A stretch of DNA of 64,000 bases, taken from contig CAWIKA010000005.1 of the NCBI GenBank assembly GCA_963836565.1, forward strand, positions 557,685 through 621,684, read 5' to 3'. The DNA is from an uncultured Acidobacteriaceae bacterium (lineage in GTDB: Bacteria; Acidobacteriota; Terriglobia; Terriglobales; Acidobacteriaceae). The notes beneath the pieces were generated by a model, which saw nothing but the letters and a program-made list of their open reading frames with translations, searched no databases and had not been told where the DNA came from. This document shows, one piece after another, positions 9,334 to 61,255 of this stretch. The number at the start of each line of letters is the position of its first letter. Within the stretch, counting starts at the first letter, position 1. A program made the position numbers and the translations under genes.

Positions 9334-9346
9334 GAAGGCGGGGACT

Positions 9347-9422
9347 GGAGACCAGGGACCAGGGAACAGGAACAGGGACGAGGGACGAGGGAACAGGGAC
9401 GAGGGAATAGGGACGAGGGAAC
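9347..9422 (+). repeat. Tandem heptamer array AGGGA(C/A)(C/G/T), about 10 units
   Basis: agggacc agggaac aggaac agggacg agggacg agggaac agggacg agggaat agggacg agggaac read directly from 9354-9422. Confidence 0.95.
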
Positions 9423-9521
9423 CAACTTTGTGTCTTGGCGCCTGTCTTTGGTTAAGCTGATCCGCCGCAAGGATCGATTGGCGGAATTGACTGAAACATT
9501 CGCATTTGCTTTGCATTTACT

Positions 9522-9550
9522 CTTCCCTGCTCCCTGTTCCCTCGTCCCTG
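9522..9550 (-). repeat. Inverted copy of the heptamer array (4 units)
   Basis: Reverse complement reads agggacg agggaac agggagc agggaag. Confidence 0.85.
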
Positions 9551-9580
9551 CTTTATTCTTTTGGGTTGAGGAGAATTGCG

Positions 9581-18030: not shown

Positions 18031-18039
18031 CTATTGCTC

Positions 18040-20707: not shown

Positions 20708-20716
20708 TTCAACCTC

Positions 20717-23377: not shown

Positions 23378-23386
23378 TCTGACCTC

Positions 23387-33174: not shown

Positions 33175-33355
33175 CTTGACCTCTGCCGTGACAGCACAAG
33201 TAAACGATTGAAAACAAATGATTTCATGGGCGTTGATGGCTAAGTTCAGCACCCTTGAGCATTCAAAAACACCGGGAAAATCGCCAATTTCAGTTTTCAA
33301 CACCCTCTCCAGCACCCTCGACTTTTCACGGCTCAGAAACCCCTTGACCTCTGCC
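33175..33355 (+). repeat. Cluster of short direct repeats near attL (arm-type binding-site candidates)
   Basis: CTTGACCTCTGCC at 33175 and 33343; CARCACCCT at 33247, 33298 and 33310. Nearby inverted repeat AAGTTGTTT-N5-AAACAACTT at 33060-33082. Confidence 0.6.
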
Positions 33356-33493
33356 TATGTTCAACACAGGTCGGGCGCAGGCCGTTTTGATCTCTGGCGC
33401 AAACGACCAGAGATCAATAATTGGTCACGGCCTCCTGCGAACCAGTTTCGATTCCTATCGACGCGTCCATGAGTGCCTAGGCGGAGATAACCG
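33345..33493 (+). repeat. Left-end repeat copy L1 (146-bp direct repeat of 41413-41558)
   Basis: Gapless alignment with 41413-41558, about 13 mismatches over the last 129 bp by hand count; ends GGCGGAG-ATAACCG. Confidence 0.92.
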
Positions 33494-40467: not shown

Positions 40468-41193
40468 ATGAACCCTCTGCTTCTCACCTCGATGGCGGCC
40501 GTTTCAACTTCTGTGGGCGGCTATTGTGCCGTCCTGCTGCAGCGGAGAGTCCATCTGCTCATGTCCTTCGGCACCGGAGTGCTCGTTGGCGCTGCCCTGC
40601 TGGATTTGCTCCCCTCCGCATTGTCGGCCGCGGAAAGCTCAGGTTCATCGAAGGCACTGGTTTTTCCCATCGCTGCCTTCGGCGGCCTGCTTATCTTCTG
40701 CATCGGGGAAGTAGCGAGCCGTTATCGAGCAAACAGGGTCGGTAATCGATCGGCCGGAAGGGTCAGTGCCTCTTTCCTCATTGTGCACAGCACTCTCGAC
40801 GGAACGGCTATCTTCGCTGCGTCCACCATATCGCTGCAGTTGGGGCTGATTGTGGGACTCGGAGTCGTAGCGCACGATATATGCGACGGATTGAACACGA
40901 TCCTGCTGGCCACCGGCGCAGAAAAACCTGGATGGACCGATTACGGGTTTCTGGCGCTCGATGCCCTGGCGCCCATCGCCGGCGGCCTGATCGCAGCCCA
41001 TCTCTTCCGGGTCTCCGATGCGCTGGTCATGGTCTTTCTTAGCCTTGCGGCAGGATCCTTTCTCTTTACCGCATTCTTCGGTCTGCTTCCCGATACTTGG
41101 CGACGCGCAAGCCGCAGTCTGGTGCTCTCCCTTGGACTCGTCGGCTTTTTGCTGATCCTGTGCCTCACAAAGCTGGTCGGCGCGCTTGGGTAG
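40468..41193 (+). CDS. ZIP-family metal transporter
   Basis: FGTGVLVGAALLDLLP, VHSTLDG, VAHDICDG, AAGSFLF...LLP. Confidence 0.85.
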   Translation: MNPLLLTSMAAVSTSVGGYCAVLLQRRVHLLMSFGTGVLVGAALLDLLPSALSAAESSGSSKALVFPIAAFGGLLIFCIGEVASRYRANRVGNRSAGRVSASFLIVHSTLDGTAIFAASTISLQLGLIVGLGVVAHDICDGLNTILLATGAEKPGWTDYGFLALDALAPIAGGLIAAHLFRVSDALVMVFLSLAAGSFLFTAFFGLLPDTWRRASRSLVLSLGLVGFLLILCLTKLVGALG

Positions 41194-41412
41194 AAGGAGT
41201 GGCCCCGCGGCACCGGCGAGATCAACCGAAAGTTTGGTGGAGACACTCCGCTGATTCGTACAGGCAAACGCGCTCATTGACGAGGGCGCACGTGACTGGA
41301 ATCAGCTTCTGGACGGCAATCGCTGCGCTTCTGCACCCGACCGGCGCCCTCGTCGTTTCATCTATCTCCGCAGGTCACTGGAGCTTTGAGATTTACGCGC
41401 GCGGCTATGCGA

Positions 41413-41567
41413 TGACCACTGCTCAGGCACAACATAGGTCAGGCGCACGCCGGTTTGACCTCTGGTGCAAACGACCAGAGATCAATAATCGGTCACGGCC
41501 TCCTGCGAACCAGTTTCGATTCCTATCGACTCGTCCGAGAGTGAGTTGGCGGAGATAAGCGGCCAAT
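41413..41567 (+). repeat. Left-end repeat copy L2, including the terminal inverted repeat ATAAGCGGCCAAT (41555-41567)
   Basis: Direct repeat of L1; TGGCGGA core at 41547-41553. Confidence 0.92.
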
Positions 41568-41619
41568 AAGCTGGGCCACGTGATCGTGGGTTGCAGTAAG
41601 AAGTTATATTTTCTTTCAG

Positions 41620-42237
41620 TTGGATTTTCTTCAGGAGGCGGAGCCCCGCTTCCTGCCAAGCATCTTGGCGGATCGCAGCGGGAAGCGGGACCCGTGTGAG
41701 GTAACGATCCTCTTTGTCCCAGTGTCGGTCCCGCTGGAGCGGCTTGCTGCCGGCTGGGCCGAAGACTCGGACGAGAGTATTTTACGCCGATGCCCGGTTT
41801 GCGAACAGGATTCGATTGTTGGCCATGGGCGACGGCGCAAGCAGGCGCACGACGAGCATCACGATTGGATCGGGATTCGCCGGGGCCGCTGTATCCGATG
41901 CGGAAAGACATTCACGTTTCTGCCGGTGTTCTCTCTGCCCTATACGCATTACAGCCTGCTGGCGCGCTGCCAGGCATTGCTGCGTCGCTTTGTGGAGCAC
42001 TGTTCGTGGGAGAAGGCAGCGCCGAAGTTGAAGGATCCTGACCGCGTACCCGATTCTTCCACTGTGCGCCGCTGGTCGCAAGGTGTGGACGAGTCACAGC
42101 CGGCCCTGTCTTTTCTGCGCAAGGTGGCTGCGCGAGCGGCTAAGTGGCTGGAATCTGCTTACTCGGATCAGGACGAGGCAGCGTTCTTATCCTGGCTGAC
42201 TCCGGTTCTCGAAGTCATCTGCCCTATGCGCCGCTGA
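41620..42237 (+). CDS. Zn-ribbon protein (DUF6431-like) with C-terminal HTH-like segment
   Basis: CPVC...GHGRRRK...IRRGRCIRCGKTFTFLP...Y; VPDSSTVRRW. Start uncertain. Confidence 0.72.
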   Translation: MDFLQEAEPRFLPSILADRSGKRDPCEVTILFVPVSVPLERLAAGWAEDSDESILRRCPVCEQDSIVGHGRRRKQAHDEHHDWIGIRRGRCIRCGKTFTFLPVFSLPYTHYSLLARCQALLRRFVEHCSWEKAAPKLKDPDRVPDSSTVRRWSQGVDESQPALSFLRKVAARAAKWLESAYSDQDEAAFLSWLTPVLEVICPMRR

Positions 42238-42320
42238 GAAAAAATCCTTTTCCCCACCATCCTTGCCTGGGAACTCCAGCATGGTTCTCCTACGCTGGGC
42301 TCCGGAGGCGAAAAGGCGCT

Positions 42321-43310
42321 GTGGGTGAAGACGTCGAAAGACTAAAGCGGCGAACGCCGCTGCTGGAGTACCTGCGACAGCACGACTGGGCAGGGCGGCC
42401 CGCAGGCCGATTCGAGTATGTCGGACTCTGTCCACTACACAAGGAGAGTCAGCCGTCGTTCTATGTGAACGCGCGCAAAGATGTCTTCTACTGTCACGGC
42501 TGCGGACAGGGCGGCGATCTCATCCGCTTCGTCCAGTTATCGCGCGGCTTATCCTTCCGCCAGAGCGTGGCCAGCCTCGATCCGGAGATCGCTCCGCAAG
42601 CTGATTCCAACGCTGTGCTTGAGGATGCCGCGGCGTTCTATCAGCAGCAACTGGATCGCTGCTCCGAGGCGCTCGACTATCTCCACCGGCGCGGAGTGCA
42701 TGATCCGGCACTGTTCCGGGAACTCGGCATCGGCTACGCACCAGGTGGAACCCTGCGCCGATATCTGACCGCGCAAGGCTATTCGTTCGATGTGTTGCAA
42801 AGGCTCGGCCTCATCGACGCTCGTGGCGCGGATGCTCTCTATCAGCGCATCGTGTTTCCGTTGCAGCAGAGCGAGCACATCGTCAACCTCTACGGCCGCA
42901 GCATCGGTTCTGCGTTCGCCCATCGCTTCCTGCCCGGGAGCAAGGGCGGCCTGTATGCATGGGAGAAGGTTCGCAACTGCTCCGAGGTGGTTCTGGTCGA
43001 AGGGCTGTTCGACTATGCCGCCCTGCGGCAGGCTGGGTTCCATAACGTGACCTGCTCGCTGGGTACACAGCTCAACCAAGACCAGTTCCGCCAGTTGTGC
43101 GAAGGCCAACGCACCGTCTATCTCACCTTCGATGTCGATCGGAACCAGAGCGGCCAGCAAGCTGCAGAGCAACTGGCTCAGCGTCTTGTCATGCAAGGTA
43201 TCTCGGCACGTCGCGTTCTCCTGCCTGATGGTCATGATCCTAACTCCTTCTTCGTTGAAGGAGGAGACGCACCTCAGTTCCAGTCTCTGCTGGAGGCTGC
43301 GCAGCCATGA
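42321..43310 (+). CDS. DnaG-like primase (CHC2 Zn finger + Toprim, no helicase-binding domain)
   Basis: GLCPLHKESQPSFYV, FYCHGCGQGGDLIRFV, RIVFP, LYGR, VVLVEGLFD, YLTFDVD; GTG 42321 after GGAGG. Confidence 0.92.
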   Translation: MGEDVERLKRRTPLLEYLRQHDWAGRPAGRFEYVGLCPLHKESQPSFYVNARKDVFYCHGCGQGGDLIRFVQLSRGLSFRQSVASLDPEIAPQADSNAVLEDAAAFYQQQLDRCSEALDYLHRRGVHDPALFRELGIGYAPGGTLRRYLTAQGYSFDVLQRLGLIDARGADALYQRIVFPLQQSEHIVNLYGRSIGSAFAHRFLPGSKGGLYAWEKVRNCSEVVLVEGLFDYAALRQAGFHNVTCSLGTQLNQDQFRQLCEGQRTVYLTFDVDRNQSGQQAAEQLAQRLVMQGISARRVLLPDGHDPNSFFVEGGDAPQFQSLLEAAQP

Positions 43311-44350
43311 AGTTCCACGTGATCTCGAAAAAGACCTCTACGGGCGCGCATAGTCCGATTCAGGTGGTGCAGCAATCCACCGGCAAGGGCGTTGCGTGGA
43401 TTAATCGGTACCTCGACCGCGAGTACGTCCGCCGCCTCGCAGACAAGTCCCTCTACAGCTACGCGCACAGCCTGTTGCACTTCGTACGCTGGTGGGAGAG
43501 TGTCCATCACACTGGTGAAATCTCTGCTGCTGACCTTACCGAGTCGACTCTGTTCGATTACGTACGCTTCCAATCGAGCCTCCGACCTCCGCCTTCTGCC
43601 TCCACCATCAACGACCGCACCGCCACTGCCGATCGCGCTATCCGTAATCAGTTCCCCGATGCTCCATGTCAGGTCGCGCACGGCTTCCATCAGCCCTTCC
43701 TGCACCGCAGGCCGATGGGCCTGGGACGGCCCAGGTTCGAGCTGAGCAGACTCAGAGTGCGGGAACCCAGGCTCAACGTCGTTCCTCTCTCGGTCGATGA
43801 AGTGGCGCGCTTCTGGTCCAGTTTTCGAAACGCTCGCGACCTGGCCATCGTCGGCCTGATGCTGATGCAGGGGCTCCGCTCCGCCGAAGTGATGGCCTTG
43901 AACCGTGACGATGTGCTGCTCTCCGAAGGGCAGCTTCGGGTGCGCGGCAAGGGGAACAAGCTACGCTTGCTGCCCCTGGCGCCGGAAACCACGCAACTGC
44001 TCGATCACTATCTCCGCGTCGAGCGCCCCGATCCCTGTTCGGCGGCACTGTTCGTGGTCTTGAAAGGGTCCGCTCGCGGCCAACGCATGACACCGGCGGG
44101 ATTACGCTCCCTGTTCCGTCATCATCGCCGCACCTCCGGCGTTCAACTAGCCAATCCCCACCGGTTCAGACATACCTTCGCCTCGGACATGGTGCGCGCC
44201 GGCATCAGCCTGCCCGCGCTGATGCAGTTGATGGGTCATGCCGACATCGAGACCACCATGCACTACGTGAAGGTCTCACCGCAGGATGTCTATCTCCAGT
44301 ACGCCCGCGCGGCGGCGCAATGTATCCATCCGCAACCGAGGATCTCCTGA
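43307..44350 (+). CDS. Tyrosine recombinase 1
   Basis: GLRSAE, VRGKGNK, PHRFRHTFA, LMGHADIETTMHY; ATGA overlap with the primase stop. Confidence 0.96.
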   Translation: MKFHVISKKTSTGAHSPIQVVQQSTGKGVAWINRYLDREYVRRLADKSLYSYAHSLLHFVRWWESVHHTGEISAADLTESTLFDYVRFQSSLRPPPSASTINDRTATADRAIRNQFPDAPCQVAHGFHQPFLHRRPMGLGRPRFELSRLRVREPRLNVVPLSVDEVARFWSSFRNARDLAIVGLMLMQGLRSAEVMALNRDDVLLSEGQLRVRGKGNKLRLLPLAPETTQLLDHYLRVERPDPCSAALFVVLKGSARGQRMTPAGLRSLFRHHRRTSGVQLANPHRFRHTFASDMVRAGISLPALMQLMGHADIETTMHYVKVSPQDVYLQYARAAAQCIHPQPRIS

Positions 44351-45486
44351 TGCGCTGGCGCCGTCCTCCACTTCAGCATCCCCTGGCACTGGCCTTCGCG
44401 CACGCGGTCGAGTCTCTGTGCACCGCACTCACTCCTTCCAGCAAACGCAATTACGACATCGCGGTGCGCAGCTTCCTCGTTTATCTGGGCGCAGAATATC
44501 CGAAGATTACTCGTCTCGAACAACTGCGCCGCGATCCTCATATCCTCGGATGGATGGCGCACCTGCGCGCCCAGAATCCGCCTCTGGCCACGGCAACCTG
44601 CATCGGACGGCTCTTCGCGCTGCGCACTATCTTCCATGAGCTCGCTCGCACCAGCCATCTCGCTGAACTGGCCCACTTGCTGCTGCGCGAGGATATCCCG
44701 CGCTCGCCCCATACTCTGCCACGACCGCTTACCCCCGAGCAGGATCAAATCCTCCAGCAGGAGTTCATGCGCCGCAACGATCTCGGCGGAAATGTCTTCC
44801 TCCTGCTCCGCTCGACCGGCATGCGTATCGGCGAGTGCGTCGATCTCTCCTACGACTGTCTGCGCTCCACGGGGCCGAACCAATGGGCCATCCATGTTCC
44901 CCTCGGCAAACTCAAGACCGAGCGCATGGTCCCGGTCGATATCTTCGGCCGCGATCTCGTGCACCGCCTGCGCTTCTTCCGCTCTCTCGACCCTCTGCCT
45001 GCGGATGGTCGCCTACTGGCGCGGCCCGGAAGCAAAATAGCTATCCTGGTTCAGCTCCGCGATTACCTGCATCAGGTCTGCCACTCCCTCGGACTCTCTA
45101 CTCGCATCGTCCCCCATCAGTTCAGACACACTTACGCCACGGAGATGCTTCGCTCCGGGGTCAGCTTCCCCGTCCTGATGAAATTACTCGGCCACGTCGA
45201 TCCGGCCATGACCATGCGTTACGTCGATGTCGCCCTCACCGATCTCGAACGCGAGTTCCAGTTGGCTCGTTCCAAACCCAGGCATCTGGCTCCACAACCC
45301 AAAACTTCGACCGCACCCGCAAGGGCAGGCCTCGACGGCCTCATCGATGCCTTAGTCGCCGCTCAACACCTTATGGAGATGTTCCGTCGATCGCTCACAA
45401 ACGGCAGCGCTCGCAATCGGCTCCTCCGGCTCTCCAAACGCCTCATCAAAATCCTGACCGAGATAAGAAAACTCCACACCACCTGA
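44350..45486 (+). CDS. Tyrosine recombinase 2 with C-terminal helical extension
   Basis: TGMRIGE, LGKLKTER, PHQFRHTYA, LLGHVDPAMTMRY; TGATG overlap with recombinase 1. Confidence 0.96.
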   Translation: MRWRRPPLQHPLALAFAHAVESLCTALTPSSKRNYDIAVRSFLVYLGAEYPKITRLEQLRRDPHILGWMAHLRAQNPPLATATCIGRLFALRTIFHELARTSHLAELAHLLLREDIPRSPHTLPRPLTPEQDQILQQEFMRRNDLGGNVFLLLRSTGMRIGECVDLSYDCLRSTGPNQWAIHVPLGKLKTERMVPVDIFGRDLVHRLRFFRSLDPLPADGRLLARPGSKIAILVQLRDYLHQVCHSLGLSTRIVPHQFRHTYATEMLRSGVSFPVLMKLLGHVDPAMTMRYVDVALTDLEREFQLARSKPRHLAPQPKTSTAPARAGLDGLIDALVAAQHLMEMFRRSLTNGSARNRLLRLSKRLIKILTEIRKLHTT

Positions 45487-45521
45487 ATGAAAATGGGCAC
45501 CGATTGGCCGGTTATGGCGGA
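45473..45521 (+). repeat. Right-end copy R1
   Basis: tccacaccacctgaatgaaaatgggcaccg-ATTGGCCGGTTAT-ggcgga. Confidence 0.88.
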
Positions 45522-45652
45522 TTTGTCATCCGTCGAGCGAAATCTCATCAAAGCGAAACACACTTCTTAGTAGCGAGACGCACGGGGCGGATCTGCAACC
45601 TTTCTGGAAAACCGCCTTGTCAGGAAGCTTCGGACAACTCAGTCTGTGGAGA

Positions 45653-46048
45653 TCATTTGGAGTCGTACCTGACCTGCGACTTCCTAACCCGCTCCCAATT
45701 TGCCTTGGCCCAATCGACCAATCCTTGGGTGGGGCGAATCAGGCTCTTTCCAAGATCAGTAATTTCGTACTCCACGCGTGGCGGCACTTCGGGAAAGAGT
45801 TCGCGTATTACCAACCCGTCACGTTCGAGATTCTTGAGCGTCACCGATAGCATCCGCTGTGAGATTCCTGGAATCGCACGGTCGAGCTCGGAGAATCGCG
45901 CCCGTCCGCCGAGGAGATCGAGCGAAAGAATCAAGAATATACTCCACTTGTCGCCAATTTTCGTCAGCAGCTCCCTGACCGCCATCGGGTCTGAGCTTTT
46001 GCAAACTGCTGCGGGATCCAGGGGTTCAGTCCTGCGTTGCTTCTTCAT
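45653..46048 (-). CDS. HxlR-family winged-helix regulator
   Basis: KIGDKWSIFL, RFSELDRAIPGISQRMLSVTLKNLERDGLV, PPRVEYEIT. Confidence 0.94.
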   Translation of the reverse strand: MKKQRRTEPLDPAAVCKSSDPMAVRELLTKIGDKWSIFLILSLDLLGGRARFSELDRAIPGISQRMLSVTLKNLERDGLVIRELFPEVPPRVEYEITDLGKSLIRPTQGLVDWAKANWERVRKSQVRYDSK

Positions 46049-46157
46049 GGCTTACCTTGGTGTTAGCTACTACTCTCGAAGTGCCTTCTTGTTCGATAGT
46101 AGCTTACTATTTTATAGTCACTTCGTTGAACGCCATAAAGCGAGTGGAGAATTCAGA

Positions 46158-46583
46158 ATGCCTGCTTCGAAATATGCTGCCTATAAAGCCGCCGACCCTT
46201 ACTTCAATGTGGTTCGACAGGCGCTGGGTGACCGTGTCGATGGCGAACACTTCTTTGACATCGTTACCGACGACACCATTTACGAGGTTCTCTATGATCT
46301 GGGCTGGCCTCGCATCATTCGGGGACGAACCGACCTGATGAATGCGTTCAGGGGGTATGTCGACATCATCAAGCTGCGCTCCGCAGATAACCTGGTGGTC
46401 CACACAACGGACGCTGGTCATGTCATCGTCATTGAGTATGAGGTCCATGGGACTGTCCTCGCGACAGGCGGGAAATACGACAACCGATTTTGCTCCATCA
46501 TTCAGCTTGAGAATCGGAAAATCTCGCATTGGAGAGACTATATGGACTCTCACGCGGCCTGGAATGCATTGTCGCGGCACTGA
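46158..46583 (+). CDS. SnoaL/NTF2-family protein
   Basis: IRGRTDL, VIVIEYEVHG, KYDNRFCSII, KISHWRDYMD; divergent from HxlR. Confidence 0.88.
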   Translation: MPASKYAAYKAADPYFNVVRQALGDRVDGEHFFDIVTDDTIYEVLYDLGWPRIIRGRTDLMNAFRGYVDIIKLRSADNLVVHTTDAGHVIVIEYEVHGTVLATGGKYDNRFCSIIQLENRKISHWRDYMDSHAAWNALSRH

Positions 46584-46621
46584 TAACCACTCACGCCGCA
46601 TAATCACCGCAAGAATTCTGG

Positions 46622-46669
46622 TCCGCACCACCCGAATGGAAAACGGGTACCGATTGGGCGGCTATGACG
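46622..46669 (+). repeat. Diverged right-end copy R2
   Basis: tccgcaccacccgaatggaaaacgggtaccg-ATTGGGCGGCTAT-gacg aligns with R1. Confidence 0.8.
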
Positions 46670-46760
46670 ATTTGGCGTCAAGCAACAGTTTCTGACAGAA
46701 AGAGGCTAAAGGATTGAGCGGGAGCATGCCCTCCTGACGGATCACCCGTTTAGAAATATA

Positions 46761-46788
46761 GTTCATATTGAACGATTCACAATGAATC
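46761..46788. promoter_or_regulatory. Two adjacent TTCA-N3-TGAA palindromes, candidate MarR operator
   Basis: GTTCATATTGAAC and GATTCACAATGAATC immediately before ATG 46789. Confidence 0.65.
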
Positions 46789-47358
46789 ATGCGAAACGAT
46801 CATCTTAAAACTGCAAAGGCTGCCGAGACCATCGCTATGGCGGATCAGATAAGAGCTCTCTGCTCCGTCATCACAAAGTTCGCCCGTGCAGATCTCGAGT
46901 CGCACCTGAAGGTCCATGATTCCGGCATCAGTTCGATCGAGCATGGTGTCCTTCGTCACCTGTCTCACGGGATTACCTCGATGGCCGAGATCAGCCGACT
47001 GATGGGAGTCGCGCCTTCGACCCTGGTGTACGTGGTGGACGGTCTGACAAAGAAGAAGCTCGTGAAGCGCGGCAAGGACCCTAAGGATCGGCGCCGCGGG
47101 CCCCTGCAGCTCGAAAAGAAGGGGGCCGATTTGTTCGCCCGGTTCTCGAAGATGGATGCCGGCAGTTCGCTCGTGAGAAGCCTGGAGCGCATGCGGGAAC
47201 CCAGGCGAAGCGAATTGCTGGCTCTGCTGAATGAATTACTGAACGGTCTCAACGATTCAGAACGGCTTTACCTCCGTGCTGGATCTGAAGAGGTTGAAGG
47301 GCCAAAAGCAACTTCAGCGAATGGACAAGACGCATTAACGCGGAAGACGAGGAGATAA
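46789..47358 (+). CDS. MarR-family regulator
   Basis: SMAEISRLMGVAPSTLVYVVDGLTKKKLVKR..DPKDRR. Confidence 0.88.
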   Translation: MRNDHLKTAKAAETIAMADQIRALCSVITKFARADLESHLKVHDSGISSIEHGVLRHLSHGITSMAEISRLMGVAPSTLVYVVDGLTKKKLVKRGKDPKDRRRGPLQLEKKGADLFARFSKMDAGSSLVRSLERMREPRRSELLALLNELLNGLNDSERLYLRAGSEEVEGPKATSANGQDALTRKTRR

Positions 47359-47362
47359 AGCA

Positions 47363-47839
47363 ATGAACCGCGCTCAATGGGTGCTGATCACGACGTTCGC
47401 AGCCACCTTCTACGGTGTCGGCAACATCTGGATGACGCAGTTTGGCTGGTGGCTGTGGCCGTATGTCGCGCCCGCCGACTTTGGCGCATACCACAACGCC
47501 TGGTGGGCCATGATCAAGCCCGTCGTCTTCCCGGTCGCGGGCGTCGCTTTCTTCGGAGCTTTTGCTTTGATCTGGTGGCGACCGGCAGGAGTGACCTCTA
47601 TTCCTGTCTGGCTGAACGCGGGAATCCAGGTTCTGATCTACGCTCTCACGGCAGCTTTCTGGGGCCGCTGGCAAGCGCAAACCCATTTCGCTCGACTGCC
47701 GGACGGGGCACTCGACCCGATGTATCTACGCTCGATGAGCACCCACTGGATTCGCGCAACCCTGATTACCCTCAGCGGGTTCGTCGTGTTCTGGATGGTT
47801 GTTCAGGACCTGTCGAACAACCTGAAAAGAGTGCCGTAA
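47363..47839 (+). CDS. DUF1772/anthrone oxygenase-like membrane protein
   Basis: Four hydrophobic segments; FGAYHNAW, HWIR. Confidence 0.6.
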   Translation: MNRAQWVLITTFAATFYGVGNIWMTQFGWWLWPYVAPADFGAYHNAWWAMIKPVVFPVAGVAFFGAFALIWWRPAGVTSIPVWLNAGIQVLIYALTAAFWGRWQAQTHFARLPDGALDPMYLRSMSTHWIRATLITLSGFVVFWMVVQDLSNNLKRVP

Positions 47840-49150: not shown

Positions 49151-49279
49151 TCGCCAACAGGCCTAGCGCTGGTCGAGACGAAGGGTATCCGAATGAGCGT
49201 TCGATTCGATACCCGGCAATTTGGCATCAACTGCGAGCTCCGCGCGATTTCAAGCGGGGCGCGGTTCCTGCCCAATGCG

Positions 49280-49948
49280 GCGACCGAAGCGCAGCGGCGC
49301 GTGTGGTTCGTAATCGACGAGCTGGCGAGTTTGCAGAAATTCCCGCAGCTTCACACTGCGATCGTGGAAGCGCGCAAGAGCCGGAACCCTGTCGTGCTGG
49401 GCTTCCAGGGCAAAGCCCAGCTTGAGTACCTGTATGAGCATCTGGCCGAGGTGATGCTGTCGCAGCCAGCAACAAGCGTCTGGCTCACGACCAAGGAGCC
49501 GAAGGCCGGCCAATGGGTCAGCGAGTTCATCGGCAAAGTCGAAGTGGAACGGCTGCGCGAGACGCATTTCGATGGCACGCGCTCAGGTAGAAATTTCGCT
49601 CTGGACAGGCAGGTTGAGCCGCTGGTGCTGGAGTCCGAAATCTCCGGCTTGGCCGATCTCCACGCGTACATGAAATTCCAGAATTTCGTGACTCGCTTTT
49701 CGTTCCCGTACTTCGATATGCAGGTCGTCGCCAATGGCTTTGAGCTGCGCGAGCGGCCCGACGACAAACTGCCGTATGATCCGAAACGGATGCGGGCTGC
49801 GGAGGCATCCCCTGCGGAACTGCGGCAGGCGCCGGAGCCCTCCGCCTCCGCACAGTCCGTTGGGATTGCGACGGTCGAACAAATCGAGCCCGCACCAGCC
49901 ATCGCTCCCGATGCCGACGACACACAGAATCTCATTTTGCGGGGGTAA
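49280..49948 (+). pseudogene. C-terminal fragment of type IV coupling protein (TrwB/VirD4-like)
   Basis: VWFVIDELASLQK (Walker B), VVLGFQGKAQL, EVERLRET, SEISGLADL; Walker A half missing. Left boundary approximate. Confidence 0.85.
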
Positions 49949-49957
49949 TGGAGTGCC

Positions 49958-51714
49958 ATGCTGACGATCTCAAAACCGCTCTCTGCAACCCAGGCACAGA
50001 CCTATCATGCCAAGGAGTTTACTGCCGCCGAGCAAAATTATTGGAAGGAGCACGATACCATTCAAGGGGAATGGCGCGGCAGGCTGGCCGAAAAGTTCGG
50101 CCTTGCCGGTGCGGTGGGAGCCGAGGAGTTCACTCGTCTTTCCGAAGGCCGGCATCCGCAGACCGGCGAGCAGTTGGTACGCCATCGCGCCGTGCATCAA
50201 TATCAGACCGAAGACGGCCGGACCGTAGCTCCGGTTGAGCATCGCGCCGGCTGGGACGCAACGTTCAGCGCACCCAAGTCTGTCTCGCTGACGGCGCTTG
50301 TCGGCGGCGATGACCGTGTGCGCGAGGCCCACCGGGAGGCTGTCGCTGTCGCCTTGAATGAATTGGAGCGGTACACACAGGCCCGCATCGGCGGTAATCA
50401 TGCTGCCGAAACCACCGGGCAGTTTATCGCCGCCACCTTCGAGCATGACACCGCTCGTCCGGTGGACGGCTACGCCGCGCCACAGTTCCACACGCACGCG
50501 GTTGTTTTCAATATGACGGAGCGCGAGAACGGAACCATGCGCGCATCGCAACCGAAAAGCCTCTTTGAGAGCCAGCAGTTTGCTACGGCCGTCTATCAGT
50601 CCCATCTCACATACAAACTGCGCTCTCTCGGCTATGAGATCGAGTCCGGCAAAAGCGGAGCGCCGGAGATCAAGGGCTACTCGCAGGAGTATCTTGATGC
50701 GTCCAGCCCGCGCCGTCAGCAGATCGTGGAGGCCGTCGCGCGAAGCGGATTCAGCGGGCCGGATGCCGCGCAGATTGCGGCGCACAACACCCGCGATGGC
50801 AAGCAAATTCTGTCTCCCGCCGAGGTCATGGAGGCGCACCGCTAGATTGCCGCCGAGTTCGGCAATCAGGCCGATACTGTCGTGGCCGCAGCGCATGAAC
50901 GCCGGCAGAGCCAGACGCATGAGACACCGGCAGCGGAGCGGACCCAGAAGGCACATTCCGCCGTGACCTTTGCCCGCGACCGCAGCTTTGAGCGCGAGGC
51001 CGTCATGGATGAGCGTGCTATCTTCGTCGATGCCATGCGCCGCGGGATGGGAGAAACGACATACCCGGAGGTGCGGGCCAGCTTCGAGGCACGTATCGCC
51101 TCCAGCGAGTTCCGCATCGTTGCCAGTGAAAAACACGGTACGGGCCGCCAGTTCACCACGGCGGAGACAATTCGAGCGGAGCGTGAAGTCGTAAAGACGA
51201 TGCAGGATGGCCGGGGCCGCACTCCCCAACTCGTATCCATTCAACAGGCCATACCGCTTACCGAGGCACGCCCGCTGCTCAACCAGGCACAGCGCAGGGC
51301 CATCGAACAGGTGCTTACATCACGCGACCGGATACAGGGATTACAGGGTGTCGCCGGCGCCGGGAAGACGACAACGCTGGTCAGCATCCGCCAGGGCGCG
51401 GAGCAGAGCGGCTATGTGGTCGAGGGCTTCGCTCCGACCAGCCGCGCCGCCCGCCGGCTCCGCGACGCGGGCATTGCCGCCGACACCTTGCAGGGCTTTC
51501 TTGCCCGGACCGGAAAGACGGACCCGGCAGTGAAACATCTCTACATGGTCGATGAATCCTCGCTGGCATCGACGCAACAAATGCGGGAGTTTCTTCGGCG
51601 GATCGGCCCCCAGGAAAAGGTGCTGCTTATCGGGGATTCCCGTCAGCACCAGGGCGTCGATTCCGGGAAGCCCTTCGAGCAGTTGCAGCAGGCCGGGATG
51701 CAGGCGGCGCAGCT
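49958..51714 (+). pseudogene. MOBF (TrwC-type) relaxase-helicase with internal stop and 3' truncation
   Basis: MLTISK, NYW, GWDATFSAPKSVS, FEHDTAR..PQFHTH. TAG at 50843-50845 is followed by an in-frame continuation with GVAGAGKTT and VDESSL; homology ends at GMQAAQL. Confidence 0.92.
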
Positions 51715-52416
51715 CTGCCCCGCAACAAGTACACCGCGATCCGCGACGAACAGCCGAAATCGAAAGACGAGGCCAAGCGTCCCGAATTCAAGGTGTGCAA
51801 GTACGCCGCCGACGCCATCATCACCGAGGGGAGCGATGTGGGCACGGTCCACAAAGTCTGCGCGAATCCCGCCTGCCCCATTCACCACACGAAGAAGCAG
51901 ACCCGTGCGGGTGAAAACGACGCGCAGATCAAGGCCGACGAGGAGAAGCGGCGCAGGGAGGAAGCCATCGCCAATTCGACCGGCCTTCGCGTTCTCACGG
52001 CGATTGGCGCTGCGGTTCCGGTGCGGCTCATGAAACGTGACCTCTTGTTTGTGGCGGAACATCTGGCGAACATGCTGGACGACAACCGTCTCGCCATTCT
52101 TGCAAAGCAGCACGGCATCCGGCAAAAACGGGATGATGGCGGAGTTGCCAAGACCCTTGCGGCCTTTCTTCGCCGCGCCGACGAAAGCACCCTCGGACGT
52201 GCCGTGGTTCAGTCGATCGTTCTTCTCACCGCCTCGCGTGGCAACGCCTCGCAGGCTTTGCGCGATGCGGCCGCGGCTTACAAGGTGGACACCGACGCCA
52301 TCGCCGCAACTGTCAAGCAGGAGTTCGCCGCGAAAGAAAAAGCCGCGAAGAAGGCCACGGCGAAGCCCCCCGTCAAAGCGCAGACGAAGCCAGCCACAAA
52401 GTCGGCAGCGGCATAA
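51715..52416 (+). pseudogene. C-terminal fragment of an ICE ParB/Spo0J-like protein
   Basis: Frame LPRNKY...KVCANPACPIHH...RREEAIAN...KVDTDAIAATVKQEF begins abruptly at the relaxase truncation. Family call is from recollection of acidobacterial ICE proteins. Confidence 0.6.
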
Positions 52417-52507
52417 TTATCCACCCGACCAGAACACTGTGCGGAGCCTGCAAGATAGGCTCCGTATTTTTTATGTTCGCCTGCCCGTTTGCCCTCCCTC
52501 ATGCGTG

Positions 52508-52529
52508 GCTCCTGCCATCTGGCAGGAGC
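52508..52529. terminator. GC-rich hairpin downstream of the ParB-like fragment
   Basis: GCTCCTGCC-ATCT-GGCAGGAGC; no clear U-tract. Confidence 0.45.
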
Positions 52530-52541
52530 AGCATTCTCAAG

Positions 52542-54393
52542 GTGAGTAGGCCTGAGGACTTTCACCCCAAGCCCCTCGCAGAACCGTGCGTAAATCTCTC
52601 GATTTACACGGCTCCCATTATCCAACCGAATATCTGGTAACGTTCCAGTAGAAAAACATCTGAGGGAAGCAGTTCTTCATCTTGATGAGCCATTGCACAC
52701 TGGCCTGCTCTCGCCGCTCCAGTGTCTGGTATTTGCGTCTGGCCCATTGCATCAGCTTGCCATCGAAATACATGGCGAAGCTGTGCATCGCCGATGGGTA
52801 GAACTCCCCGAAGTAATTCCACCAGCCACGTAGTACCGGATTGTATTGCTTCGCCAGTTCAGCAAGTGTCGTTGCTGTCCGGCGATGGATGCGCCAGCCC
52901 CGCACCTCCTTCCGCATTCGCTTCAGAGCATCAACACTCACGCCCGGCGTAAAGCTTGTGAATCTCCGGCCTTGTCTGTTGACAGCACGCCTTGGACGAA
53001 ATGTAAATCCAAGGAATGTGAACTGAACATGCGGATAAGAGGCATTGCGGCCACTGCTCTTGCAGTACACAATTCGCGATTTCTCCGGGTGCATCGTCAA
53101 CCCGCATTCCGTCAGTCGCAATGCGATGGACCGCATTACTTGTTCTGCCTGTTTCCGATTTCGGCAGTGAACCACAGCGTCATCGGCGTAACGGGCAAAC
53201 GGACATGATGGATTGGTGCGTTGCATCCAGACATCGAACGCGTAGTGCATGAACAGGTTCATCAAAATCGGACTGACGACTCCGCCTTGCGGTGTGCCTC
53301 GTTGCCGCGACACCCGTTCGCCGTCTGTGGTCTCGAACGGAGCGGTTAGCCACCGTTCGATATACAGCAGTATCCAGTCCTCCTTGATGTGGCTGCGGAC
53401 CGCTTTCAACAAGAGGCCATGATCGATTTGATCGAAGGCTGACTTGATGTCAAACTCCACCACCCATGCGTATTGCCAGCACCGTTTTCTGGTGACTGCC
53501 ACCGCCTGTTTCGCCGACTTACCAGGCCGATACCCATAGGAATCCTGATGGAATAACGGGTCCAATGTCGGTTCGATGATGCGCTTGACCACGGTCTGCG
53601 CAATGCGATCAGATACAGTCGGAATACCGAGCTTTCTCGTGCCGCCCTTTGCCTTCGGAATTTCAACCTGTTTCACCGGAGGCGGGAAGTACGACCCCGA
53701 CGACATCCGGTTCCACAGTTTGTACAAATTCCTCGACAGGTTCTGCTCGAACATCGCAAGGGTTTCCCCATCGATGCCGGCAGCGCCCCGATTGGCCTTG
53801 ACCTGCTGGTATGCCTCCCATACTGCGCGCTTCGCAATAACATACGGTTTCGTTGATGTCATATCACTCATCCCCATGAAACAGGTTGGCGATACTCGTC
53901 AACTGGATAACGCTGCCCCTTCGCTCCACCCTCATTACAAGAGCTTCATGGCTACTACGAGCAGCTCCGTCCCTTGCTCTGGCATCGGTATTCTTCCTCA
54001 TGGTGTTTGCCATTTGTCATTTCCCTTCTCATCCAGAGCAAAGTTCTCACGTTCCGTACCAAAGCCTGTGTTGAGTTCATGCCGCCTTTACACCGACTGC
54101 CACCGGGACCGTAAGCAGGTTCCTTCCCGGCTAATCATGGAGCAGGTGGGCTCCCCACTTTTGGCAGTTCCTTAACCCGTAACGATGCGTCATCGGCCGG
54201 TTTGCTTTCGCTCATCTCCTCAACACGTACCTGACCTCCTGATCGGAAGTCTTTTCCCCAGTTGTTCACTACCGCGCCTTTTGAACGCAGCAGCACTGGG
54301 CGGTTTGAAGCCTGCTCCTGCAAGCCGACTTCGGGAGGCCTACTCCCATCTTTGGTACAGCACCGCGAGCTTGCGCTCGCGTTCGTGACACAC
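52542..54393 (-). mobile_element. Group II intron, RmInt1-like (bacterial class D), 1,852 nt
   Basis: 5' end GTGTGTCACG at 54393; domain V GGGAGCCGTGTAAATCGAGAGATTTACGCACGGTTCT; domain VI ending CTACTCAC at 52542. Confidence 0.92.
52618..53862 (-). CDS. ltrA: Group II intron reverse transcriptase/maturase (no endonuclease domain)
   Basis: KANRGAAGIDG, LGIPTVSDR, GTPQGGVVSP, RYADD, FTFLGF, maturase X domain NPVLRGWWNYF. Confidence 0.96.
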   Translation of the reverse strand: MTSTKPYVIAKRAVWEAYQQVKANRGAAGIDGETLAMFEQNLSRNLYKLWNRMSSGSYFPPPVKQVEIPKAKGGTRKLGIPTVSDRIAQTVVKRIIEPTLDPLFHQDSYGYRPGKSAKQAVAVTRKRCWQYAWVVEFDIKSAFDQIDHGLLLKAVRSHIKEDWILLYIERWLTAPFETTDGERVSRQRGTPQGGVVSPILMNLFMHYAFDVWMQRTNPSCPFARYADDAVVHCRNRKQAEQVMRSIALRLTECGLTMHPEKSRIVYCKSSGRNASYPHVQFTFLGFTFRPRRAVNRQGRRFTSFTPGVSVDALKRMRKEVRGWRIHRRTATTLAELAKQYNPVLRGWWNYFGEFYPSAMHSFAMYFDGKLMQWARRKYQTLERREQASVQWLIKMKNCFPQMFFYWNVTRYSVG

Positions 54394-54570
54394 CCCACCC
54401 AACGGGCACCGCCGCCGGCAAACGGCGCCGGGGAGCCTTTCGCACCAGGTTGCGGATGCATTTGAGCAGTGGCCGCTAAGAGCTGCTGCCACTGCAAAGT
54501 GTGTAGGGCAGCTTATATCTTCTTTCGGGGAATTGACCCGATAAGCATTTGTTCATCTCTGGGTTTCAGC

Positions 54571-55052
54571 ATGCGTATCCGCGCTGGAAAGTGTCTGCCT
54601 ATGACCTGCACCGAGGTCTTTGCCAGGTTTCGAAAGCCTCCATCCGCCTTCAGAGCGGGTGCGTTGGCTCAGAATCATCTGCGGTTCCGGATCAGTCCTG
54701 AGATGACAATCGCCTTGGGCACAACTGTTATGGCTGCCGGCGACTTCCTGCAAGGCGAGCACGTTGAGATCGAGGCCTGCGTCATCCCTGCCCAAACGAA
54801 ATGGATGCATACGAGCGGGTCCTGGGCGACGCCATGGCGGGAGACTCCACGCTGTTTGCACGACAGGATTACGTAGAGGAGGCCTGGCGAATCGTGGATC
54901 CGGCTCTGAAGGCCGAAACGCCTGTTTACAAATACGAGCCAGGAACCTGGGGTCCGAGTGAGGTAGATCAGATAGTTTCACCCGATGGAGGATGGCATAG
55001 CCCGATGATGGCGGAAGAGGATAATCCAAGGTTTATTGGGAAATCCTGTTAA
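54571..55052 (+). pseudogene. zwf: C-terminal fragment of glucose-6-phosphate dehydrogenase with frameshift near 54780
   Basis: IRAGKCLP..., then MDAYERVLGDAMAGDSTLFARQDYVEEAWRIVDP...YEPGTWGP. Confidence 0.85.
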
Positions 55053-55258
55053 CGAACTGATTCTTTTCATAGAGCACCTTCGGAACGGGCATTCGGACCG
55101 TTCCCTTTTGGAGAAGACACACAAAGCTCGAAATATTTGACCAAGCCGATCTTGCGGCGCGAGCCGGCGCGACGATGATTGTGGGGGACACCAGCACAGC
55201 GATCGCCGCGCTCCTTTGGCCAGCGTCCGAGGATTTTGCGCTGGGTCAACCGTTAATT

Positions 55259-56191
55259 GTTGTGTACTGGCAGCTAGCTGAGATGGGTATTCCGTGCGAG
55301 GTTGTGGCGCCCACGCTGGTACCGATCAAGGCGGGCGATCGGGTGAAGACAGATCGGCGGGATGCGGAGAAGTTGGCGCGTTGCTACCGATCCGGCGATT
55401 TGACGGCAGTATGGGTTCCTGATGAAGGTTCCGAGGCTCTACGAGATCTGGTGCGTGCTCGTGAGGCCGCCAAGCAGGATCAGATGCGAGCGCGGCATCG
55501 GTTGAGCAAGTTCCTTTTGCGCTCAGGCCAGCGTCCACCAACCGGTGTGAGGCCGTGGACCCGGCCTTATCTAATCTGGGTTGCACAGCTACGGTTCACA
55601 CAGTCAGCTCAGGAGTCCACGCGGCAGGATTATCTACACGAGGTCGAGCACATGCGGGCACGAGTGGCACGTCTGGAGCAAGCCATCATGGAAGCAGTGA
55701 AGCTGGCCTCTCCCGCGTTACAACAAGTCATCAACGATCTGCAGGCACTTCGGGGTATCGCTGATATCTCGGCTGTGACCATTGCGGCCGAGCTGGGCCA
55801 GGTGTCCCGCTTTGGCAGTGCTCGGGAGTTGATGGGCTATTGCGGCGCGGTGCCGAGCGAAGACTCAAGCGGCAAGCGAATCAGGCGTGGGGGCATCACT
55901 AAAACTGGGAATGCGCATCTTCGACGAATTGTTGGCGAAGCAGCATGGAGCTATCGCCGGCCACCGTGCATCTGGTATGGCTTGCGGAGGTGGCAAGAGA
56001 GCATTTCGGAAGAGGCCAAAGAAATCGCGTGGAAAGCCCAACACCGCTTGCACAAACGGTACATGAAGCTGGGTGCAGCCGGAAAGCCACAAGGCAAGAT
56101 CATTACCGCGGTTGCTCGTGAGTTGCTGGGATTCATCTGGGCCATCGGAATCAGAGCAGAGACGATCGCCAACCAGCCAGCCGCAGCATGA
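55259..56191 (+). pseudogene. IS110 transposase lacking the N-terminal RuvC-like segment
   Basis: DRVKTDRRDAEKLAR, GAVPSEDSSG, GITKTGNAHLRR, AVARELLGFIW present; GLDVH and YEAG motifs absent. The ORF start at 55175 is unrelated sequence. Confidence 0.85.
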
Positions 56192-60454: not shown

Positions 60455-60551
60455 ACTCCGAAGTCGAAACGGCATCAGGCCAATGCTCATGCGCTCACTT
60501 CATAGACGCGTAAATCCGCAAATGTTGCTGTCAGCTGTTTGCGTACAGGCC

Positions 60552-60904
60552 ATAAGCGGCCAATCAGTTCCCATTTTGAGGTGTGGAAAATATTGCACGT
60601 TGCGAGGCCGATCAGGCTATATCTTCACCAGCCGATACTCCGCGATAGAACGAGAATGCCAACTCTCATTTGCTCCTCTGCAACGCACTGCATGGATTCC
60701 AGGTATCAGAGGCCGTCATGAGCGCAACTCGTGCCGCTACGCGGCACTCAAGTCTCAGCAACGACCGACCCGTGCTCAAACAAGAAGTGAAAACACCCTG
60801 TTTGAAAGTAAGAAATCCGGCTGAAAAATAATACAGCGTCTGTCCCAGCCGCGCCATACCTGGCGTTGCTCAGATAATGCTGGTCTAAAAGATTGGCCGC
60901 TTAT
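60552..60904 (-). mobile_element. 353-bp non-autonomous derivative of the recombinase-primase element (inverted)
   Basis: Perfect terminal inverted repeats ATAAGCGGCCAAT (60552-60564) and ATTGGCCGCTTAT (60892-60904). The 60552 end matches R1; the 60904 end and outer flank match L2. Confidence 0.85.
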
Positions 60905-61255
60905 CTCCGCCAAGTCACTCATTGACCCGGTCGGATCGGCTATGCCTCTGGCAAGTTGCGGTATAACCGGCTGCTCGGACAAGTGATCACTGCCCAGCAT
61001 TTGCTGCGATTCTCTCGCGAGCGGTGAACAGCCATTGAACTCATCTAGTCTAGGGATCGATACTGCAAACTCGGTGTGTCGCCCGAAAAATGCAAGGCGG
61101 ATCGGAGAAATCGTGTGGGACGGTCCGCGTGGATGCCCTTGTCCCGGAGCGGCAGTTATAGTCTCCAGTAAGTCTCCAGGAAGTCCGCGCGGCTTCAGAC
61201 GATACGCTCGAACCCGCATAACCATTGCCGTTCATGCCGTATCCGGACGCATTCT

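Follow-up and report, generated by a model that had tools for sequence, protein, structure and literature searches.

Mobile element in the window and the question raised by its second right end

In the analysed 64-kb stretch of DNA (the window), a divergent pair of genes encoding an HxlR-family regulator and a SnoaL-fold protein lies between two sequences that resemble the right end of a mobile element: R1, which terminates the resident element E1, and the diverged R2. A preliminary description of this locus offered two explanations: that the pair is a captured cassette, or that R2 is the remnant of an older related element into which the present copy inserted. Did the element acquire the pair, or did the pair come to lie between two right ends by other means? 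Comparison with homologous contigs makes it highly probable that R2 is the fossil of an older copy, E0, and that two independent insertions and a deletion left HxlR-SnoaL between the two ends. Since two insertions and a deletion account for the apparent cassette, no new capture mechanism is needed. The features on which this reconstruction is built are listed in Table 1.

Table 1. Coordinates of the analysed features in the window
Feature	Position	Strand	Sequence, domains or basis
E1, complete 3,968-bp element	41547-45514	+	Pfam and NCBIfam matches; empty-allele contigs
Left junction of E1	41548-41554		GGCGGAG
Left arm of E1	41555-41567		ATAAGCGGCCAAT
DUF6431 ORF of E1	41620-42237		
DnaG-like primase of E1	about 42144-43310		CHC2 zinc finger, Toprim
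Xer-like recombinase 1 of E1	43307-44350		
Recombinase 2 of E1	44320-45486		
R1, intact right end of resident E1	about 45473-45523	+	
Arm of R1	45503-45515		ATTGGCCGGTTAT
Junction of R1	45516-45522		GGCGGAT
Chromosomal block with HxlR and SnoaL, apparently native	45515-46624	.	Left bound, E1 insertion junction; right bound, breakpoint with E0 relic
HxlR-family winged-helix regulator, 131 aa	45653-46048	-	PF01638, E=4.6e-26
SnoaL_2-fold protein, 141 aa, divergent from HxlR	46158-46583	+	PF12680, E=1.1e-7
R2, probable fossil right end of older copy E0	46622-46672	+	R-end profile; mutated arm; L165 orthologue
Element interior in R2, ~31 nt	46622-46652		
13-bp arm of R2	46653-46665		ATTGGGCGGCTAT
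Junction heptamer of R2	46666-46672		GACGATT
Native E0 target half-site upstream of MarR gene	46666-46690	+	GACGATTTGGCGTCAAGCAACAG...; empty sites in L162/L163; consensus fit
MarR-family regulator, native right-hand neighbour of E0 site	46789-47358	+	PF12802
353-bp mini element of the family, without genes; source of R3	60552-60904	-	
Arm of R3	60552-60564		
Arm of L3	60892-60904		

The resident element and its family

Both recombinases of E1 match PF00589 (E=3e-30 and E=8e-21), align to XerD (1a0p) over the catalytic domain, RHxxR and GH...Y motifs included, and carry the tyrosine recombinase signature R...K...HxxR...H/W...Y; the motifs conserved in both relative to XerD are GLRSAE/GMRIGE, HRFRHT/HQFRHT and GHxD...Y. 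Logan contigs from soil runs X2 and X3 join position 41546 exactly to 45515, with 7 bases shared. Thus, E1 is a recent, precise insertion, and its left flank is native to this lineage. This joint also ruled out a chimeric left flank, which had been suspected since contig L083 lacks window positions 41264-41547. The left flank holds 284 nt in place of a 37-nt hairpin seen in other lineages. ARAGORN and Rfam revealed no tRNA or tmRNA target, and no ncRNA in the 149-nt repeat left of E1.

The family to which E1 belongs is characterized by (i) the DUF6431 protein, (ii) the DnaG-like primase, (iii) two Xer-like recombinases, (iv) 13-bp arms, and (v) a GGCG crossover. About 70 complete copies were found in other genomes, none of them with cargo, a second R end or an R-cargo-R layout; their left and right ends are spaced 3.95 kb apart, and two longer copies hold nested IS5-like and IS21 elements. 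Acidobacteriaceae genomes can carry as many as 11 copies or more of the ~4-kb element, which is polymorphic for presence and absence in soil metagenomes. The target consensus of the family is TCGATGAGTGCnTT-GGCG-ATTTnGC....GA; a search of the window for the half-site patterns as an abundant REP-like repeat showed no enrichment over shuffles. The mini elements of the family are MITE-like derivatives. One equal in length to that of the window occurs at L026 11902-12254 and is conserved at its left end over ~110 nt and at its right end over ~50 nt.

A 22-nt match of contig L001 to the flank of R3 had suggested that the segment at 45.5-60.5 kb might be circularly permuted or inverted; the match proved to be a repeated half-site-plus-hairpin unit, also present at L085 1527-1590, with no longer homology around it. 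Literature searches on DUF6431 and on elements combining a primase with tyrosine recombinases returned nothing relevant and no description of this family. The parent family is a more interesting object than R2 itself. It would place DUF6431 in a context and provide a tractable two-recombinase transposition system.

R2 as a diverged right end

The proposed alignment of R2 with R1, including the end of recombinase 2 and the arm, was confirmed at 82.7% identity over 52 aligned nucleotides with one gap, and both arm sequences are as originally given (Table 1). A BLAST search of the window with E1 recovered R2 at E=5e-6. Comparison of an R-end profile with random sequence had been set beforehand as the test of R2. 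The nhmmer profile, for which 60 distinct right ends were taken from other genomes and the window copies left out, gave 83.6 bits for R1, 29.4 bits for R2 (E=3.4e-8) and 24.5 bits for R3; the top score among 100 dinucleotide-preserving shuffles of the window was 13.2 bits, below that of R2. Beyond this significant match lies a target-type half-site for which empty alleles exist.

The R2 sequence carries several marks of decay. The TGA stop codon of recombinase 2 (45484-45486) lies inside R1; R2 keeps the bases equivalent to the end of this gene, and the stop is gone (CCTGAAT changed to CCCGAAT). In the R2 arm, mutations affect positions 6 and 10, both of which are invariant in all 127 intact arms (71 R and 56 L). 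The motif ACGGGTACCG is present in R2 and in the MarR-locus contig L165 described below, and in only one (L034) of 72 other R ends, whereas R1 has ATGGGCACCG at this place; E0 and E1 appear to belong to different sublineages. No active end is more than 88% identical to R2.

Profile searches for R and L ends and BLAST searches detected no partner left end and no remnants of E0 genes for R2 anywhere in the 64-kb window. R2 is classified as a relic rather than an element because it has neither a left end ~3.95 kb upstream nor the four element genes in between. The length of right end that it keeps (~50 nt) about equals that kept by the mini elements, and therefore length alone is no proof of non-function. 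R2 is best described as real but apparently dead, an inert 52-nt remnant of an older, separate element copy. We consider it very improbable that the fossil might serve the E1 recombinases as an alternative right end, in which case the L1...R2 unit (41547-46672, ~5.1 kb) could move together with HxlR-SnoaL. Such a unit can be likened to surrogate-end read-through in some insertion sequences, and its mobility, if true, would be a first step of cargo capture in a family otherwise free of cargo.

Genomic contexts of the HxlR-SnoaL block

The Pfam matches agree with the description of a divergent HxlR/SnoaL pair between R1 and R2. JGI contig L001 encodes a protein identical to the window SnoaL; exact look-ups with the window HxlR and MarR proteins gave no recorded match. 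Three metagenome contigs contain the block as a whole with 94-95% identity (L001 3694-4803, L083 1088-2192 and L085 3359-4467), and they are mutually homologous past the block for ~50 nt more on the left and 140-330 nt more on the right. To the left, all three read ...GAGTT GGCGAT(T/G)TGTCATCTGTCGAGC, which is the unoccupied target; to the right, they run into a common sequence, ACGTTCGAGGCTGAT..., that is missing from the window. In L083, the 3' end of a ZIP-transporter gene (window 40766-41263, 88%) is found 46 nt from the block. Neither R-like nor L-like ends were detected beside the block in the three contigs. Scanning 80 loci of SnoaL relatives (353 kb) with the R profile yielded a single match, which lies in a truncated mini element at a distance of 1.5 kb from the pair.

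These contexts bear directly on the captured-cassette explanation, according to which HxlR-SnoaL is mobile between two R-type sites and is moved by R x R recombination, as in integrons or pdif modules. The layout in the window fits it well, as the regulator and enzyme genes form a self-contained unit with a directly oriented R-like site exactly at each side, and homology to the other contexts of the pair begins and ends at R1 and R2. However, none of the three other contexts has an R-like site at either boundary, and each continues into common native sequence; co-occurrence of the pair with R-like ends, anticipated in the preliminary description, was never observed in them, and the one profile match among the SnoaL loci does not adjoin the pair. 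The two sites are not both intact, given the two mutated invariant positions in the R2 arm, and the unit does not end at the crossover: the left boundary of R2, where the native block stops, is ~31 nt inside the element end, away from GGCG. In addition, R2 is orthologous to the relic of L165, which has no such pair beside it, and the family carries no cargo in about 70 copies. The capture of a cassette is thus very unlikely; the pair appears, from its synteny, to be resident chromosomal DNA with an independent insertion site on either side, the two being 1.1 kb apart.

A nested arrangement is hardly more attractive. It would place E1 inside an older element, with HxlR-SnoaL as the interior or cargo of that element and R2 as its true end, and it agrees with R2 being older and more diverged than R1. 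But the DNA between R1 and R2 appears to be native chromosome, syntenic with the ZIP-transporter gene in L083, and the empty allele of the E1 site joins native flank to native flank. The left end and genes of E0 are absent throughout the window, and no intact long L0...HxlR-SnoaL...R2 element was found among 252 relatives. We regard this arrangement as scarcely probable.

The MarR locus and an orthologous relic

The right-hand neighbourhood of R2 was compared with MarR homologues collected via homology search, which occur with the upstream site either empty or relic-bearing. Two contigs, L162 and L163, show homology (88%) to the window starting at position 46668 and read ...CGTGCCCAG GCGATTGGCGTCGAGG...; they carry the E0 site empty, since the native sequence there runs without an element. 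The R2 flank, GACGATTTGGCGTCAAGC, fits the right-flank consensus, and the flanks of R1 and R2 are alike because the element picks targets fitting one consensus. A third contig, L165, is 95% identical to the window over 46624-47443 and bears 110 nt of the R end. Its relic has the derived states of R2 (the recombinase-2 stop lost, arm C6 changed to G, and the junction GACGATT) and is preceded by an epimerase-like gene rather than by SnoaL or element genes. Of the arm positions conserved in 127/127 arms, one is mutated in L165 and two in the window; decay of the relic appears to be progressive. Upstream of the MarR homologues (P0002, P0003, P0004 and P0007), only empty sites or the L165 relic were found, and no intact E0. 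Over the 1-2.5 kb that could be compared, the native surroundings of the HxlR-SnoaL pair have no sequence in common with those of MarR.

The suggestion of an older related element therefore stands as far as the remnant is concerned, given the L165 relic and the empty sites of L162/L163. Its other part, the insertion of the present copy into that element, does not hold, as E1 occupies its own native target 1.1 kb away, for which empty alleles exist.

The same data address the possibility that R2 was copied from R1 in place, by aberrant transposition or slippage, and then diverged. Such a local duplication would account for two sequences 83% similar over 52 nt, in the same orientation and 1.1 kb apart, but it is extremely unlikely. 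The diagnostic bases of R2 are common to the L034 sublineage and the L165 relic and are not those of R1, and R2 lies on its own target site, with empty alleles elsewhere. Moreover, R2 probably occurs also in the absence of E1, because run X3 holds both the E1-free contig and the Logan contig L002 with R2, their linkage resting on adjacency and similar depth of the two contigs.

Equally improbable in the extreme is a mis-join of the metagenome-assembled contig at a repeated element end. The element is multi-copy (E1 has a depth of 30-60x vs ~4x in the flanks), and repeats of this kind are a frequent cause of broken or mis-joined assemblies. However, the independent contig L002 (run X3; 975 nt, 99% identity) spans SnoaL-R2-MarR, and this junction is covered at flank depth in runs X1, X2 and X4. 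With an identity of at most 88% to any active end, R2 is too diverged to collapse with such ends.

Proposed history of the locus

The reconstructed history would include four steps: (i) E0, an older ~4-kb tyrosine-recombinase element, would have integrated site-specifically upstream of the MarR gene, (ii) E0 would have decayed, so that its last ~52 nt alone survive in this lineage, (iii) an illegitimate deletion or rearrangement would have removed all other E0 sequence along with the native DNA that followed SnoaL, fusing the 3' flank of SnoaL to the relic, and (iv) much later, E1, from another sublineage, would have integrated precisely in a separate native target 135 nt past HxlR on its 3' side. 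The data show the two insertions with an empty allele of each, as well as the orthologous relics and the mutations that they carry. We infer the deletion joining SnoaL to the relic, at a breakpoint between block and relic with TCC microhomology (46622-46624), as well as the order of events to the left of R2. The intermediate state, either an intact E0 upstream of MarR or SnoaL with its native flank in this lineage, was not found among the contigs examined.

R2 is explained by ordinary mobile-element decay. The related genomes provide a clean, datable fossilisation series of tyrosine-recombinase element ends, which comprises an empty site, a 110-nt relic and a 52-nt relic.

Comparison with known systems

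R2 resembles the solo-end relics of insertion sequences and transposons in several features: it consists of a short piece of one terminus that lacks both a partner end and element genes, it lies on a recognisable insertion site, it is mutated at positions conserved in active copies, and it has orthologous relics of other length in related genomes. The difference is in the parent, which integrates site-specifically and encodes two Xer-like tyrosine recombinases, unlike an IS with its DDE transposase. The likeness to integron cassettes and Acinetobacter pdif modules is superficial. HxlR-SnoaL does lie between two direct tyrosine-recombinase-type sites, but it occurs elsewhere without them, R2 is decayed with its inner boundary off the crossover, and R1 and R2 derive from two independent insertions.

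RIT elements consist of three adjacent tyrosine recombinase genes (RitA, RitB and RitC). Tn554 encodes the tyrosine recombinases TnpA and TnpB together with TnpC, lacks terminal inverted repeats and has a single preferred att site. Like the E1 family, both are small mobile elements that encode several tyrosine recombinases in overlapping genes of the same direction. Three tandem ORFs of E1 had been considered as a RIT trio, and this reading was rejected, since the first ORF is a DnaG-like primase by Pfam and there are two recombinases only. The E1 family differs from RIT and Tn554 in having two recombinases, not three, along with a DnaG-type primase and a DUF6431 protein, as well as in its 13-bp terminal inverted arms, 4-base GGCG junction repeat and semi-palindromic target consensus. 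Set against the general description of Tn554 given above, the inverted arms and the many insertion sites per genome may be distinctive. RIT has been assigned to the simple Xer-like group (PMC8138268).

The XerC/XerD-dif system and IMEX elements are also comparable, as both E1 recombinases align best to XerD, XerC and XerA. The predicted circle junction, in which 7 nt separate the arm from an inverted arm, and the family target, with two half-sites around a short central region, may each be seen as resembling the dif-like core bound by a heterodimer. In contrast to these systems, the E1 family encodes its own recombinase pair and uses many sites per genome instead of a single chromosomal dif.

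Anatomy of E1 and its family

A complete mobile element, E1 (see the table below), has R2 and the HxlR-SnoaL pair at its right edge; its intact right end is R1 (45473-45523). Both E1 recombinases align with XerD over the catalytic domain, in which the RHxxR and GH...Y motifs are conserved. The 252 relatives revealed by the genome-collection scan with recombinase 2 all come from MAGs of Acidobacteriaceae or Terriglobales (Terracidiphilus, Granulicella), and one MAG has at least 11 element copies. The layout is uniform in 79 loci, with left and right ends 3.95 kb apart and an element length of 3.95-4.0 kb (E1; loci L003-L081); neither a second right end downstream nor cargo was found at any of the 79 loci surveyed. 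Two copies are over-long, one with a nested IS5-like transposase (L053) and one with a nested IS21 (L029). In L053 (9279-10578), the interruption is a DDE transposase that lies 89 nt short of the right end; in L029 (3266-6104), istA/istB separate DUF6431 from the primase.

Coordinates of features in the window and, in the last row, in related contigs
Feature	Coordinates	Remarks
E1, complete mobile element	41547-45514	
E1 left junction		GGCGGAG
E1 left arm	41555-41567	13 bp, ATAAGCGGCCAAT
DUF6431 ORF	41620-42237	E1
DnaG-like primase	~42144-43310	E1; CHC2 zinc finger and Toprim domain
Xer-like tyrosine recombinase 1	43307-44350	E1; overlaps recombinase 2
Xer-like tyrosine recombinase 2	44320-45486	E1; overlaps recombinase 1
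E1 right arm	45503-45515	ATTGGCCGGTTAT, then GGCGGAT
HxlR	45653-46048	minus strand; downstream of E1
SnoaL_2	46158-46583	plus strand; downstream of E1
R2, second right-end-like site	46622-46672	downstream of SnoaL_2
MarR gene	46789-47358	downstream of R2
T4 coupling-protein fragment	49193-49948	decayed conjugative module
TrwC relaxase, split	49958-50845 (relaxase part); 50882-52033 (helicase part)	decayed conjugative module
Group II intron	52541-52616; 54229-54347	minus strand; Rfam matches
RT/maturase ORF of the intron	52618-53877	
IS110-family transposase	55175-56191	
ZIP-HxlR interval, hairpin lineages	L001 3656-3693; L083 1042-1087; L085 3320-3358	

Within one genome, copies share identical sequence as far as the junction heptamers but have different flanks, so the element boundaries are placed at these heptamers. 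The flank consensus is TCGATGAGTGCnTT-GGCG-ATTTnGCgctaatnGA, and the repetition of GGCG at both junctions would be expected of integration via crossover in the short central region of a semi-palindromic target. Because this target consensus is shared, the sequence outside R1 resembles that outside R2. Every arm surveyed (71/71 right, 56/56 left) has C at position 6 and T at position 10.

The literature searchable here yielded no published description of the DUF6431, primase and two-recombinase architecture. The element can be likened to a two-recombinase system of the Xer/dif type on a mobile element. Its likeness to RIT elements and Tn554 is loose, the defining features of RIT elements, and apparently those of Tn554, being absent: in contrast to them, it has two recombinases, not three, plus a primase and DUF6431, inverted 13-bp arms and many target sites. 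Interpretation of E1 as a RIT trio was rejected, as its first large ORF encodes a primase.

Insertion of E1

Logan contigs from four soil-metagenome runs were mapped on window 41000-47200, giving a depth of 30-60x for E1 versus ~4x for its flanks. E1 is polymorphic for presence and absence in runs X2 and X3, where contigs join 41546 directly to 45515, omitting 3,968 nt; 7 bases (TGGCGGA) are shared at the joint. The joint is the empty allele of the E1 site and carries the left flank seen in the window, and E1 is a recent, precise insertion. Run X3 contains both the E1-free joint and a 975-nt contig (L002) that spans SnoaL-R2-MarR at 99% identity; therefore, R2 is probably present in a population with the E1-free allele. 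As independent support for the SnoaL/R2 junction, L002 also argues against mis-assembly at this point. In run X1, 327 nt from the 3' part of recombinase 2 (window 45168-45496) are missing from one contig of depth 7; thus, some copies in that community have an internal deletion beside the right end.

R2 is a homologue of the right end

The preliminary description reported a likeness between R1 and R2 that extends into the arms. The arms are as written there, and the two sites align over 52 nt with 82.7% identity. In a right-end profile built from 60 distinct right ends of other genomes only, with the window copies left out, R1 scores 83.6 bits, R2 29.4 bits (E=3.4e-8), and R3, the third right-end-like site, 24.5 bits (60549-60583, minus strand). 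The best score in 100 dinucleotide-preserving shuffles of the window is 13.2 bits; R2 thus exceeds random expectation and is a genuine homologue of the E1-type right end.

The HxlR-SnoaL pair is native DNA

The pair had been proposed to form a captured cassette, whose other copies might end in R-like sites. The SnoaL protein is identical to one encoded on a JGI contig (L001), and a metagenome scan identified 80 loci with SnoaL relatives; HxlR is a neighbour in only 14 of the 65 with enough upstream sequence. The block is present in L001, L083 and L085 at 94-95% identity, and their homology to the window is limited to 45515/45520-46624, from the last R1-arm base to the first R2 bases. None of the three has an arm-like site beside the block. 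Homology among the three extends ~50 nt beyond the block on the left, where the sequence is GAGTT GGCGAT(T/G)TGTCATCTGTCGAGC, an unoccupied target, and 140-330 nt beyond it on the right, where ACGTTCGAGGCTGAT follows, a sequence absent from the window. In L083, the 3' end of a ZIP transporter gene (window 40766-41263, 88%) lies 46 nt from the block, and therefore the pair shares a chromosomal neighbourhood with the genes left of E1. Across the 80 SnoaL loci (353 kb), the left-end profile has no match and the right-end profile a single one, a truncated mini element in L085, 1.5 kb from the pair. The pair is native DNA, and the cassette interpretation is contradicted by the same block occurring between shared native flanks that lack such ends.

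The ZIP-HxlR interval itself varies: the window lineage has 284 nt (41264-41547), versus a 37-nt hairpin, CACGTTTCC...GGAAACACG, in the three other lineages. The break at 41263/41264 falls within a sequence reading like a reverse-oriented target site, and a further copy of the hairpin unit lies at L085 1527-1590.

R2 belongs to the MarR locus

Several further contexts were reached via homologues of the MarR protein. Homology of contigs L162 and L163 to the window begins at 46668 (88%), and just upstream both carry CGTGCCCAG GCGATTGGCGTCGAGG, an empty site with both half-sites and no element; L166-L168 have unoccupied target-like sequence at the equivalent position. Contig L165, 95% identical to the window over 46624-47443, retains 110 nt of right end at the same place as R2 (profile, 65 bits), preceded by an epimerase-like gene and by neither SnoaL nor element genes. 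This longer relic shares with R2 the loss of the recombinase-2 stop codon (CCTGAAT to CCCGAAT), the change of arm C6 to G, and the junction GACGATT, and upholds the earlier suggestion that R2 is the remnant of an older related element (E0). R2 is thus an old part of the MarR locus. One invariant arm position is mutated in L165 and two in R2, the pattern of neutral decay. An interior motif of R2 and L165, ACGGGTACCG, is found in just 1 of 72 other right ends (L034); R1 has ATGGGCACCG instead. E0 and E1 therefore represent different sublineages that arrived independently.

Proposed history and function of R2

E0 integrated upstream of MarR and decayed there. The remainder of E0, together with the native DNA that followed SnoaL, may then have been lost by a deletion or other illegitimate rearrangement, which would have fused ...CTGGTCC to the relic at a three-base microhomology, TCC (46622-46624). 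Site-specific recombination is not the source of this joint, as its breakpoint falls ~31 nt within the element end and not at the GGCG crossover. Comparison of the native DNA to the right of the pair with that to the left of MarR showed no common sequence within the contigs compared, and no genome with the intermediate state was found among the MarR-homologue contexts examined. E1 integrated later, at a separate target of its own 135 nt past the HxlR stop, a location at odds with the suggestion that it had entered the older element.

Among known kinds, R2 comes closest to the solo terminal relic of a transposable element. With no partner end, no genes, an arm damaged at invariant positions, and a decay gradient across genomes, R2 is predicted to have no present function. 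Its surviving length, ~50 nt, is close to that of the right ends kept by mini elements, so length alone is no proof of inactivity; use of R2 as a surrogate end is nevertheless highly improbable.

Mini elements and other features of the window

R3 is supplied by a gene-less mini element of 353 bp with both family ends (60552-60904, minus strand). An equally long one in L026 (11902-12254) shares ~110 nt of left end and ~50 nt of right end with it, the middle being diverged (MITE-like), and the L085 copy (~1600-1822) is truncated on the left. Beside the left end of the window's mini element, an 80-nt stretch (60909-60988) is 97.5% identical to sequence in two other MAG loci (L053 13431-13510 and L031 14415-14494); it could represent a further small repeat or conserved intergenic DNA.

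No Rfam family matches a 149-nt direct repeat (33345-33493 and 41413-41561, 87% identity), each copy of which terminates in a good left half-site plus GGCGGA. The second copy is the native left flank of E1; the first lies immediately downstream of mnmE and resembles an unoccupied target, GGCGGAG ATAACCGCTCGTAGA.

In 49193-56191, a decayed conjugative module is succeeded by a group II intron and an IS110-family transposase. Four MacB_PCD/FtsX permeases (~880 aa; 15382-26068, minus strand), tandem paralogues, are spaced by 2,670-2,679 nt, with a fifth nearby (6275-8911, minus strand), an arrangement of duplicated orphan permeases that is typical of Acidobacteria. Short tandem GGGACGAGGGAAC-type repeats (9342-9415 and 9515-9550), with an inverted copy ~100 nt downstream (83-90% complementary), are placed upstream of an ORF at 9506-10795.
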